From Promethearchaeota archaeon (GTDB lineage Archaea > Asgardarchaeota > Lokiarchaeia > Sigyniarchaeales > SOKP01), in assembly GCA_016839765.1 (NCBI GenBank), contig JAEOTP010000084.1, positions 1 through 25,831 of the forward strand: DNA of 25,831 nt. The letters are read 5' to 3'. The notes under the pieces are model-generated. The model made no database searches. It had not been told where the DNA came from and was given only the letters and a program-made list of their open reading frames with translations. A program made the translations under genes and the position numbers. Positions within the stretch are counted from its first letter, which is position 1, and each line of letters opens with the position of its first letter. Below are positions 11,345 through 16,280 of this stretch, in pieces.

Positions 11345-11908
11345 TTAGCCTATGATATCATCCTTTTCTATTACGCCATCTTCCATAAGCATTAATCTAG
11401 CAATATTTTCAAATACATTGTCTACATTATCCCCTGTTTTAGCTGAACATTCAAAATAACCTTGCAAATTACTTGATCTTGCTATTTCTATTCCTTCTCC
11501 TGTTGGAACAGATCGATTTTCTTCTAGATCTAATTTACCTCCAACCACTATTATTGGAATATGGTTGTTAGTGGCTTTCATTTCTTCAACGAAAATCGAG
11601 AGCCAGCTGTCAATATTTTTTAAACTCACATATCTAGTGATGTCAAACATGAATATTCCACCTTGAGCACCCTTTACAAAACTTGGAAATAATATCTTAT
11701 AGCGTTCTTCTCCCGCAAAATCCCAAACGTGAAGTCTAACTTTGTGACCATCGACTTCTAAATCTTTTACGCTAAGATCTGTGCCAATAGTCATTTTAAG
11801 ATCTTCTTTAAAAACTCTATCAAGATACCGATGGGTTAAAGAAGTCTTTCCAACTCCACCATCACCACATATACAGAGCTTAAATTTATTCTTTTCAGTT
11901 TTTTCCAT
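11345..11908 (-). CDS. Ras-superfamily (Rab-like) small GTPase
   Basis: G1 GDGGVGKT, G2 TIG, G3 WDFAGEE, G4 GKLD, G5 CSAK. Confidence 0.93.
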   Translation of the reverse strand: MEKTEKNKFKLCICGDGGVGKTSLTHRYLDRVFKEDLKMTIGTDLSVKDLEVDGHKVRLHVWDFAGEERYKILFPSFVKGAQGGIFMFDITRYVSLKNIDSWLSIFVEEMKATNNHIPIIVVGGKLDLEENRSVPTGEGIEIARSSNLQGYFECSAKTGDNVDNVFENIARLMLMEDGVIEKDDIIG

Positions 11909-12605: not shown

Positions 12606-13133
12606 CTATTTTGAGATCAATTCATTAGATTTAATCACATGATTTGCCAGGGATTCAAATGCTTTATCTACATTTAATCCATTTTTTGAAGATGTTTTAA
12701 TATAATCAACCATACCGAAACGTTCTTGAGTTTTTTTAGCATAAATGTCAGCCACCATAGAAAATTCCTCTAGATCGCATTTAGCAGCAATTAGAACTAT
12801 CGGTAAATCTTTATACCGTTTTTTTACTAATTGCACCCATTTTCCTATATTTACAAAACTAGTCATGTTAGTAATATCAAAAAGCAATAAAGCTCCTGCT
12901 GCTCCTCTAATATATCTATCAATCATAAATCTGAAACGTTCTTGCCCAGATAAGTCCCATAAAATAAGTTGGCAATTCGCGGAATCTAATTTGGTTTGTT
13001 TAGTGAGAAATTCAACTCCAATTGTCATTGTTGACGTATCTAGAAACTTTCCCTTGGCATATCTATGTAAAAGTGTTGTTTTTCCAACACCTCCGTCTCC
13101 AAGAATGAGAAACTTAAATGCAACTTGCTTCAT
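12606..13133 (-). CDS. Ras-superfamily (Rab-like) small GTPase
   Basis: G1 GDGGVGKT, G2/RabF1 TIGVEF, G3 WDLSGQERF, YIRGA, LLFDIT, G4 AKCD, G5 TSSK. Confidence 0.93.
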   Translation of the reverse strand: MKQVAFKFLILGDGGVGKTTLLHRYAKGKFLDTSTMTIGVEFLTKQTKLDSANCQLILWDLSGQERFRFMIDRYIRGAAGALLLFDITNMTSFVNIGKWVQLVKKRYKDLPIVLIAAKCDLEEFSMVADIYAKKTQERFGMVDYIKTSSKNGLNVDKAFESLANHVIKSNELISK

Positions 13134-13238: not shown

Positions 13239-15380
13239 TTAGCTATCCTTTTCAACTAAATCATAAGCTGATGTAAATATTGCTTTTTTAGCTTTCTTTT
13301 TCTTTGATTTGAAATCCACTGAGGATTTCTGATATACTTTTTCGTTTAGTTCCGATATAAATTGTGAAACTTTTACAAGTTGAGATTCTCTAAACGTTTG
13401 AATAATAGATGGAGATATTAGATATAATTCATCTTTTGCTCTAGTGATTGCTACATAAAATACACGCCTTTCTTCTTCAATAGCTTCAGGATCACCTATT
13501 ACTCTACTTGAAGGAAAAAAATTTTCACATAACATAGGAATAAATACAATTCGCCATTCAAGACCTTTAGCCCTGTGTATTGTAGATAGAATCAAGGGTT
13601 TCTCGTCAATTTGCGGGTTTCCAGCGATTATTGTCTTGGATTCCAAATTAGAGTAATTCAAACTTAAGTTTTCTAAGAATTTTCGAACAGATGGAAAGTT
13701 TTTAGCATATATACTTAATTGGATTAGATCATCTAACCTATCCTGCCAATTTTCAAATTTAGTTTTGATATGATTTTCTAGAATAGGGATAAGATCCTTA
13801 ATAACCTCATCAGCTTTATCTTCAGGTGAAAAGGACAAAAGATTTTTAGTATAAGATACAAGATTTTTTATACCTACTTTAGAGATTTTCGAACCTTTGA
13901 GATTTTCTTCAATAAATAATTTACTTGATATGTTTTGAATCGGATAATTAGTTTTAGAAATTGCTTCAAATAATTTTATCGCTGATTTAGTTCCAATGCC
14001 AGGAATTATTGAAAATATCCTCATCCATGAAATCTCATCATAGTGATTTTCTATTACTTTTAAATGAGCTAGCATATCTTTAATATGGGCTTTTTCGAAA
14101 AAAGCAACTCCCGCTCGTACTTCATAAGGAATATTTTTCGCTCTTAATTCCATCTCAACTCTCATAGAATGAGAACCAGCCCTAATAAGTATTGCCATTT
14201 CATTTAATTCGTAGCCATCTGCTCTTAATTTGAGTATTTGATTGGCAATAAACCGGGCTTGATCCCAATCATCACCAACATTTACTTGATAAGGTTTAAT
14301 GCTATTTTGTCTTGTTGCTTTCATTTTCTTTTGATATTGCTTTTTGTTGTGTTTAATCGAGTTATTAGCTAATTCCAAAATTTGAGGGATACTGCGATAA
14401 TTATAAGCAATTGTATATCTGTTACAATCTTTATAGCGTTTTTCAAATTTCAAAATGTTTTCATAATTAGCACCTCTAAAGGCATAAATGCTTTGAGCAT
14501 CATCTCCAACAGCCATTACGTTATGTTCTGGATTTTCTTTGGCGATTTTATAAATGATTTGATCCTGAATATAATTTGTATCTTGGTATTCATCTACTAA
14601 AATATATTTTATACGTTTTGCTACTAATTTTGCTACAAACCTCTCATCAAGTAAACTGTTCCAAAAAACTAATAAATCATCAAAATCAACAAGATTATCA
14701 TCTGCTTTTTTCTTTCTATAAATTTTGTAAACTTCTTGTAATTTTAAGATAACTGGTTCACTATCAAATTGACTATATTTCCATTGAATGACTTCTCGAA
14801 TTTTTTTGTTGCAATTAATGGAATACGATAAGATATCTTTACACATTGCTGCTGTGGGAAATCTTTCTTCGAGCTCTTCTTTCACCTTTGCTTGTCCAAT
14901 AGCAAGTTTCATTAATCCTTTTGAATCTGTTTCGTCCATAATAATATAATTAGGCTTTAAGCCCATTGTTTTAGCATACATTCTAAGAAATCTATTGGCT
15001 ATTGAGTGAAATGTCCCCGCCCATATTCCCTTCGGTCTTTTTCCAAGAAGTGATTCTACTCTTTTAATCATTTCATTCGCTGCTTTATTAGTAAATGTAA
15101 CTAGCATAATTTGGCTAGGTTTTACTCCTGACAATAATAATTTAGCGACTGAATAGACAATGGTGCGAGTTTTCCCTGATCCCGCTCCAGCAATAACTAA
15201 CATTGGGCCCGAGATATTATTCACAACTTCAATTTGTTCCTCATTTAAATCACTATTAAAATCAACTTCATTATATTCTTCTTTTTTTTCTGGAATTTCT
15301 TCTTCTAAACTTTCTGCATAATCTTCATCATAAAATTCAAAGACATATTCCTCTGCATTTTTGTTTTCTTCGGAAACCAT
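13239..15380 (-). CDS. uvrD: UvrD/PcrA-family SF1 ATP-dependent DNA helicase
   Basis: LNEEQ (Q motif), AGAGSGKT, TFTNKAA, TFHS, LVDEYQD, VGDDAQSIYAFRGA, NYRS, STIHRAKGLEW and EEERRVFYVAITRAK. Confidence 0.95.
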   Translation of the reverse strand: MVSEENKNAEEYVFEFYDEDYAESLEEEIPEKKEEYNEVDFNSDLNEEQIEVVNNISGPMLVIAGAGSGKTRTIVYSVAKLLLSGVKPSQIMLVTFTNKAANEMIKRVESLLGKRPKGIWAGTFHSIANRFLRMYAKTMGLKPNYIIMDETDSKGLMKLAIGQAKVKEELEERFPTAAMCKDILSYSINCNKKIREVIQWKYSQFDSEPVILKLQEVYKIYRKKKADDNLVDFDDLLVFWNSLLDERFVAKLVAKRIKYILVDEYQDTNYIQDQIIYKIAKENPEHNVMAVGDDAQSIYAFRGANYENILKFEKRYKDCNRYTIAYNYRSIPQILELANNSIKHNKKQYQKKMKATRQNSIKPYQVNVGDDWDQARFIANQILKLRADGYELNEMAILIRAGSHSMRVEMELRAKNIPYEVRAGVAFFEKAHIKDMLAHLKVIENHYDEISWMRIFSIIPGIGTKSAIKLFEAISKTNYPIQNISSKLFIEENLKGSKISKVGIKNLVSYTKNLLSFSPEDKADEVIKDLIPILENHIKTKFENWQDRLDDLIQLSIYAKNFPSVRKFLENLSLNYSNLESKTIIAGNPQIDEKPLILSTIHRAKGLEWRIVFIPMLCENFFPSSRVIGDPEAIEEERRVFYVAITRAKDELYLISPSIIQTFRESQLVKVSQFISELNEKVYQKSSVDFKSKKKKAKKAIFTSAYDLVEKDS

Positions 15381-15452: not shown

Positions 15453-16280
15453 TTAGGTAAGCAAATATTTTTGAAATTGTAATTCTTCATTAAAGAAATA
15501 TTTAATATCTTGACTCTTTAGAAATTTTAGATGCCTTAAAACATCGAATAGTAAGAAAGTGCCATAAATTTTGGAAAATTTCTTTATGATAAAACGTAAA
15601 GGTAAACCTGGAATTTTTGGTGGGTTAGATGTTTTACATTGATAAGCCACAAATGCATTTAAAAGTCGTATCAAATCATTTTGACATCTTAACCTTAAAT
15701 TTTGATCATTAAAGCGAGCTAATTGAAACCCTTTGCTCCTAAATGTATGAAGATGAAATGTATATATAGGATTCCATACAACGCTTCTCTTAATTGAAGA
15801 TTTTCTATAACGAATCATTCCATATTGGTTTTCTCGCTTTTCATAGTAAGATGCAAAATATACTGCATAAATAGGCGCAATTATTCTTTCCTTTGCCATA
15901 TTAATAAAATAAACCCTACCTTGGTACATATTATGTAATTCTCTTTCTGAGGAAGATGTTATGACTCCTTGTTCATTTTTAGGGATTCGATAATAATAAG
16001 GGCCATTCCCATTTAATATCCAGAGCGCAAAAATACCTTTTTGATTATAATTTCTTGTCCGATTTAATAAGTCCTTTCTATATACCTTTGAATGCTGGAT
16101 TTCTATAGCAATCTTTTTTCCATCTTCTAATTCAACAAATAAATCAATAATTTGATCTCCTATTCTATATTCTTGCTGGATGTTTTTTATTGGATTAGTA
16201 AGTGGAATGTTATCATAAAGGTACTTTTTTATCTTAATATGTTCTATTGATTCGGAAATTTTACCTTCTTTTTCATTCAT
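15453..16280 (-). CDS. CoiA-like PD-(D/E)xK-superfamily nuclease domain protein
   Basis: ESIEHIKIK, EYRIGDQIIDLF...AIEIQHS and RTRNYNQKGIFALWI match the CoiA nuclease core (E..D..ExQ). No N-terminal Zn finger. Confidence 0.75.
   Translation of the reverse strand: MNEKEGKISESIEHIKIKKYLYDNIPLTNPIKNIQQEYRIGDQIIDLFVELEDGKKIAIEIQHSKVYRKDLLNRTRNYNQKGIFALWILNGNGPYYYRIPKNEQGVITSSSERELHNMYQGRVYFINMAKERIIAPIYAVYFASYYEKRENQYGMIRYRKSSIKRSVVWNPIYTFHLHTFRSKGFQLARFNDQNLRLRCQNDLIRLLNAFVAYQCKTSNPPKIPGLPLRFIIKKFSKIYGTFLLFDVLRHLKFLKSQDIKYFFNEELQFQKYLLT

Follow-up and report, generated by a model that had tools for sequence, protein, structure and literature searches.

The window examined here, that is, the whole stretch of 25,831 nucleotides at positions 1 to 25,831 of contig JAEOTP010000084.1 (Promethearchaeota assembly GCA_016839765.1), encodes a UvrD/PcrA-type helicase whose last residues read like the motif through which the recombinase RadA polymerizes. 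This raises the question of whether a DNA motor has acquired a docking peptide for RadA and, if so, what it does to RadA filaments. A first-pass annotation had described a basic linker followed by IFTSAYDL at positions 13257-13280 and had proposed an Srs2-like anti-recombinase; the letters and coordinates of the tail are as first read (residues 701-708, reverse strand, with F702-A705 at 13266-13277). Our preferred reading, to which we give slightly better than an even chance, is that a UvrD-family translocase of bacterial origin acquired a peptide for RadA binding and now works as an anti-recombinase. The features of the gene are as follows.

13239-15380, reverse strand: UvrD/PcrA-type SF1A helicase gene (713 residues; Pfam domains, intact motifs)
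15306-15353, reverse strand: acidic-aromatic N-terminal island, residues 10-25 (conservation, pLDDT)
13311-13331, reverse strand: QKSSVDF, residues 684-690, last β-strand of the helicase core
13281-13310, reverse strand: lysine-rich flexible linker, residues 691-700 (variable sequence and length)
13257-13277, reverse strand: putative RadA-mimic motif FTSAYDL, residues 702-708 (conservation, RadA-linker match, complex model)

The protein is the sole full UvrD of this 3.3-Mb genome, and its close homologues include proteins labelled Promethearchaeota or Lokiarchaeota. Pfam analysis assigns it a UvrD-helicase domain (residues 45-317) and a UvrD_C domain (residues 324-655), the helicase motifs Q, I, Ia, II, III, IV, V, and VI are all intact, and its AlphaFold2 single-chain model displays a mean pLDDT of 81. 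It nevertheless scores below the equivalog cut-offs of the family, with 445.7 bits for pcrA (cut-off 911) and 388.9 bits for uvrD (cut-off 1144), and the rep cut-off likewise lies far above its score. Members of the UvrD/PcrA/Rep family translocate 3' to 5' (PMC7776575), from which we infer the same direction on single-stranded DNA for this motor. As the genome contains UvrB, MutS, and MutL genes, the motor probably keeps the usual duties in excision and mismatch repair, and it is likely to operate in these two pathways as well as in the rejection of mismatched recombination. The MutS protein (1418 residues, G000 C7:14360-18616, reverse strand) contains an intein-like insertion at Walker A, with a Cys at its start and His-Asn at its end before a Ser. 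At the other end of the helicase, residues 1-32 are predicted to be disordered (pLDDT <50 in the AlphaFold2 model) and harbor the acidic-aromatic island, which is well conserved in 86 aligned orthologues (F14 95%, E15 97%, Y17 94%, D20 92%). The island is found in most Loki-family members, is degenerate in the deeper ones, and is missing in the deepest and in the sister families, the helicases of which exhibit a basic-hydrophobic stretch at this place. It is possibly unrelated to RadA.

Alignment with a solved PcrA stops at residue 683 of the helicase and at residue 646 out of 724 in PcrA, leaving 30 residues after the core in the former as compared with 78 in the latter. The PcrA-type C-terminal domain is therefore absent, without space for one, as the first-pass annotation had recognized. 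However, this absence is not special to the gene, since the whole bacterial-derived subfamily is short: the closest non-archaeal relatives found are bacterial (~40-47% identical) and are mostly as short as the Loki helicase, ending soon after the core. The lack of the domain is thus inherited, and the tail joined a protein that was already short; the idea of the tail as a stand-in for the PcrA C-terminal domain was rejected on the same ground. The stretch QKSSVDF had been suggested to resemble a PIP box loosely, which would make the tail a PCNA ligand as in Srs2. In this single sequence, a Gln and a Phe do have the spacing of a PIP box, but position 4 is a Ser and position 8 a Lys, residue 684 is a Gln in 13 of the 86 orthologues and mostly Lys or Arg in the others, and residues 684-687 form the final β-strand of the core in the AlphaFold2 model. 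Other proteins of the genome have clear PIP-like boxes at their ends, which indicates that this host does employ the canonical form. A PIP box at residues 684-690 was therefore rejected, and PCNA binding by the tail is very improbable.

The first-pass annotation had also cautioned that a four-residue motif can arise by chance, and rightly so. A bare FxxA occurs within the last 33 residues of 189 of the 2674 proteins of the genome, as compared with 168 for shuffled tails, and hence is no evidence by itself. When the motif is extended to F-x-[ST]-A-x-[DE]-hydrophobic, it is returned in the same segment for one protein out of 2674, the helicase (shuffled mean 0.5), although this count is post hoc, the pattern being taken from the finding itself. 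Other RadA ligands were sought in the proteome with the strict pattern and none was retained, the remaining 18 matches being RadA itself or internal to larger proteins; four of these proteins were checked, three of them corresponding to metabolic, transport, or polymerase domains and one being without a family.

Conservation of the tail within the Loki family is far more informative. FxxA is kept in 106 of 107 scorable close homologues, the remaining one having YxxA, and in 69 of the 70 rows of the Loki clade, the lone exception being interrupted by a contig end. In the alignment of 86 orthologues, A705 is the sole invariant column past the core, with F702 at 99%, Ser or Thr at position 704 and A705 both at 100%, and L708 at 97%; in the linker columns 693-700 the top residue reaches 22-66% only, and the distance from the core to the Phe ranges from 28 to 49 residues. 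The alignment of orthologues proposed in the first-pass annotation hence returned a conserved F-x-[ST]-A-x-[DE]-L island in a variable tail. The consensus can be written F-[KTQI]-[ST]-A-x-[DE]-L-hydrophobic, with an Asp at +4 in half of the variants. Loki-family members with core identities as low as 42% still have the motif, a Gly replacing the Ala in two of them. At the level of sequence, this conservation shows selection on one inherited motif and not many events, because the Loki sequences are kin. Eight residues follow A705 in this protein, and many orthologues end four residues after the Ala. Homologues of the sister Loki families and of another Asgard group end soon past the core without the motif; since the sister-family proteins have none, the motor works without a tail. 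Two genomes of the motif-bearing family (L051 and L108) encode a second, tail-less helicase that is sister to the motif-bearing clade.

RadA and RAD51 polymerize via an FxxA motif, and BRC repeats occupy the same site (PMC4855620, PMC5480776). The genome of the helicase encodes two RadA proteins scoring above the NCBIfam cut-off, with cores that are 71% identical.

G000 C3:29244-30497 (L031): RadA copy
G000 C72:15901-16899 (L032): RadA copy

Their linker motifs read FKSAED and FKSADI, which bears out the likeness first noted between the helicase tail and the RadA polymerization motif. Both copies have a near-identical and intact FxxA pocket sequence, and one of them is extended at its N-terminus by a long acidic segment. 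In the order as a whole, RadA linkers follow F-K-[ST]-A-[DES]-x-[IV]-W (Phe 97%, Ser or Thr 100%, Ala 100%, then Asp or Glu, and a hydrophobic residue at +6), letters that are common to the helicase tail. Co-variation of letters between tail and cognate RadA was looked for as well and is lacking in the Loki family, where the tail has Ser and Thr in about half of the cases each and RadA mostly Ser; in Micrarchaeota, the comparison comprises only five pairs, which are related.

Most genomes of the motif-bearing family contain two close RadA copies and the sister families one, and further RadA-like paralogues exist. The tail might therefore select one RadA paralogue, or a RadB-like one, perhaps as a control on the additional RadA of this family, and leave the main filament alone, and a short radA gene does lie directly upstream of the helicase in one genome. 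This is improbable, as the cores of the two copies are close and their pockets nearly the same, tailed Micrarchaeota have a single RadA each, and duplication and tail coincide on one branch only, so that the coincidence has no statistical weight.

Modelling of the peptide with the cognate RadA, which the first-pass annotation had called for, used the RadA core devoid of its own linker motif together with helicase residues 682-713. The complex scored 0.82 in three runs, the best of three controls scoring 0.00. Among 80 solved complexes, 58 attain the score mark used, as do 2 of 110 mismatched pairs; these benchmarks are only rough here because own alignments were used. At least 90% of the contacts are shared between runs, with a partner pLDDT of at least 53. 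Of the tail, only residues 701-706 and 708-709 contact the RadA core in the model, and the RadA-side contacts include L61, T93, Y94, and I113. These align with Pyrococcus I169, Y201, V202, and K221, which are residues of the Phe pocket (PMC5117717). F702 and A705 are thus modelled in the FxxA site of RadA. Since complexes of RadA or RAD51 with FxxA peptides have been solved many times, the model may owe its score to these known structures, and it reports likeness to FxxA complexes and not binding. Isolated FxxA tetrapeptides bind weakly, in the range of hundreds of micromolar (PMC4855620). Taken with the conservation of the tail, the model suggests that the helicase tail very probably binds the RadA FxxA pocket.

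There is a small chance that the likeness to RadA is a coincidence, and that the motif has its docking site within the same helicase, on a further helicase copy, or on some different partner. The single-chain model gives some substance to this idea: the linker is variable in length and falls below pLDDT 50 (residues 693-699), yet residues 701-710 reach a pLDDT of ~67 and include a short helix (residues 705-711) that could reflect docking on the helicase itself. Bare FxxA is common besides, and the other terminal peptides of bacterial relatives suggest that tails are easily gained in this subfamily. In contrast, the combination of a near-invariant Phe, an invariant Ala three positions further on, and a Ser or Thr in the interval is the hallmark of the RadA pocket, the linker varies by about 20 residues in length, and homologues from distant archaeal groups terminate in this pattern, as does none of the bacterial ones checked.

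This distribution deserves closer description. Among 300 Asgard genomes searched at E 1e-60, the helicase is found in 64 of the 68 genomes of this family, in 5 of 7 of the sister family, and in 4 of the 225 others, counts that rest on incomplete genomes in which non-detection does not equal absence. None of the 77 named bacterial homologues whose tails are complete shows the extended motif, and neither does any of 80 further, mostly bacterial matches; bare FxxA occurs in other contexts in 4 of 79 bacterial homologues. A search at 50% identity returned two distant homologues ending with F-x-R-A-D-E-L. One belongs to a Micrarchaeota genome whose single RadA has FETAD; in this phylum the helicase is found in 17 of 301 genomes, with FxxAD at or near the end in 6 of the 16 complete ones, and the tailed members have one RadA each, with linkers FESAD or FETAD. 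The other falls in a group in which names are available for Woesearchaeota and Aenigmatarchaeota only, and one member of this group adjoins histone, CDC48, and PolB genes. In this Woesearchaeota-type group, F-x-[STR]-A lies within the last nine residues of 5 of 21 proteins, that is, of 5 of the 6 long-tailed ones, these five rows being placed by 54-71% within-group identity and by the tree. In our sample, the motif is restricted to RadA-bearing hosts. Other endings occur as well: an acidic stretch with PF or PW, resembling the SSB C-terminal tail, terminates 13 of 79 bacterial homologues (L121-L199), and in several homologues (P0157, P0171, P0180, P0190, and P0369), of which one cluster is named Parcubacteria, the last 16 residues contain the related-looking peptide [FI]-L-[RT]-x-[VI]-[DG]-x-L, which we speculate to be a distinct docking signal that might address RecA.

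A tree of 65 rows, built from helicase cores only with the tails removed, places the Loki motif-bearing rows on one branch (SH-aLRT 98) inside an Asgard branch (96) that includes motif-less rows, and the DPANN rows on a separate branch (97) where rows with and without the motif are interspersed. The core tree requires at least six changes of motif state, and a single clade of all 24 motif-bearing rows is rejected (p-AU 0.0017). This topology fits repeated gains or one early gain with many losses alike, and the two cannot be separated because the rows from Asgard archaea and those from DPANN may form one common grouping (support 86), which includes two rows of unassigned origin. That archaea with a short-tailed bacterial UvrD added a RadA motif more than once, in the Loki family, in Micrarchaeota, and in the Woesearchaeota-type group, and thereby made it a dedicated RadA anti-recombinase, is a tentative proposal to which we give somewhat less than an even chance.

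The genes around the helicase were also considered as support for a link with RadA.

15453-16280, reverse strand: CoiA-type nuclease gene (72 bp upstream)
11345-11908 and 12606-13133, reverse strand: two small Ras/Rab-type GTPase genes (downstream)

The neighborhood is not conserved and provides no such support: radA adjoins the helicase in 1 of ~110 loci, a CoiA-like gene adjoins it in six loci only, all from close relatives, and the GTPase genes are ordinary for Lokiarchaeia. The single radA neighbor is the short copy mentioned above (L083:243-1241, or G032 C8:3757-4752), directly upstream of the helicase on the same strand.

What would such a tail achieve? If we assume that it binds the pocket, an anti-recombinase outcome is fairly probable. 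The motor would travel 3' to 5' along single-stranded DNA and reach the end of a RadA filament that exposes one free FxxA pocket. The tail would plug this pocket and cap the filament end, the RadA subunit would be removed, and every removal would bare the next pocket, so that the cycle could repeat; the tail may in addition keep the released subunit from rebinding. An FxxA ligand has been placed at the 3' end of the filament (PMC6440994), hence on the side that a 3' to 5' motor meets first. Each half of this scheme has precedents, UvrD, PcrA, and Srs2 clearing RecA or Rad51 from single-stranded DNA (PMC13238157, PMC8865920). On the peptide side, RECQL5 F666 aids RAD51 removal (PMC7797033, PMC12526125), F666A halving the stripping speed (PMC7797033), the FxxA of FIGNL1 aids RAD51 removal and its mutant loses about threefold (PMC6440994), and Srs2 residues 875-902 are required for contact with Rad51 and efficient clearing (PMC2777448). 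The occurrence of such tails in Loki-type and DPANN archaea, and in none of the bacterial relatives checked, makes it likely that these helicases regulate archaeal recombination filaments.

The least secure part of this mechanism is the direction in which the tail acts, because FxxA motifs also serve filament builders such as Rad52 (PMC12218292), SWSAP1, and BRCA2 (PMC6440994). The tail might bind the RadA pocket and yet serve recombination, by recruiting the helicase to D-loops or stalled forks, where it would extend, migrate, or release the joint, or by chaperoning RadA monomers in the manner of Rad52 and BRCA2. All the sequence and model evidence for binding fits this equally well, the Rad52 and SWSAP1 motifs promote filaments (PMC12218292, PMC6440994), and Srs2 and RECQL5 are reported to act in synthesis-dependent strand annealing as well. 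We nevertheless consider it unlikely, about a one-in-five matter, as the tail is a single short motif without a second binding module (the eight residues after the Ala leave no space for one of the BRC type), and as it is carried by a motor whose family removes recombinases.

Human RECQL5 is the nearest working analogue, a 3' to 5' motor in which a short, Phe-anchored recombinase-binding peptide aids the stripping of single-stranded DNA (PMC7797033, PMC12526125). It is, however, a eukaryotic protein with a RecQ (SF2) motor and an internal BRC-type motif containing F666, whereas the Loki helicase has a UvrD (SF1A) motor and a terminal, putative recombinase-binding motif that copies RadA's own sequence. 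With S. cerevisiae Srs2, it shares a UvrD-family core and a predicted recombinase contact located C-terminal to this core (PMC2777448). Srs2 differs by its long C-terminal region, in which residues 875-902 form the Rad51 site and the PCNA site occupies the extreme end (PMC2777448), as compared with a 30-residue tail devoid of a PIP box, so that the term Srs2-like holds as an analogy and fails as a statement of membership: the two are set apart by architecture. An ancestor of eukaryotic Srs2 is not supported either, the helicase being patchy in the 300 Asgard genomes, a distribution that points to convergence. Bacterial UvrD, PcrA, and Rep have the same fold and motifs, and UvrD and PcrA displace RecA filaments (PMC13238157, PMC8865920). 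The Loki helicase lies below the equivalog cut-offs and belongs to a short-tailed subfamily, also present in PVC, Omnitrophota, Syntrophorhabdaceae, and Patescibacteria; an FxxA tail is missing from all of the bacterial members checked.

FIGNL1, the BRCA2 BRC repeats, Rad52, and SWSAP1 mimic the polymerization motif and use its pocket (PMC6440994, PMC4855620, PMC12218292). All are eukaryotic, none is a UvrD helicase, most have extra binding modules, and some build filaments while others remove them. BRC repeats possess a second module ~20 residues past FxxA, which is absent in the Loki helicase with its eight residues after A705. Like these ligands, the Loki tail has a conserved Phe, a Ser or Thr at +2, and an Ala at +3, and faces a cognate RadA with an FxxA linker and pocket. 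A literature search, outside which most subscription papers lay, returned RadB and SsoRal1 as archaeal recombination mediators, but neither an archaeal helicase bearing an FxxA ligand nor a dedicated RadA anti-recombinase; a preprint on Asgard recombinases reports nothing about paralogues or helicases. For the disassembly of RadA filaments in archaea, the tailed helicase is now a named candidate. If our reading is correct, the FxxA mimicry of motor proteins exemplified by RECQL5 and FIGNL1 arose independently in archaea, plugging the polymerization pocket of a recombinase, the BRC-type trick, is not a eukaryotic invention, and a foreign enzyme can gain this trick after its transfer into an archaeal host.
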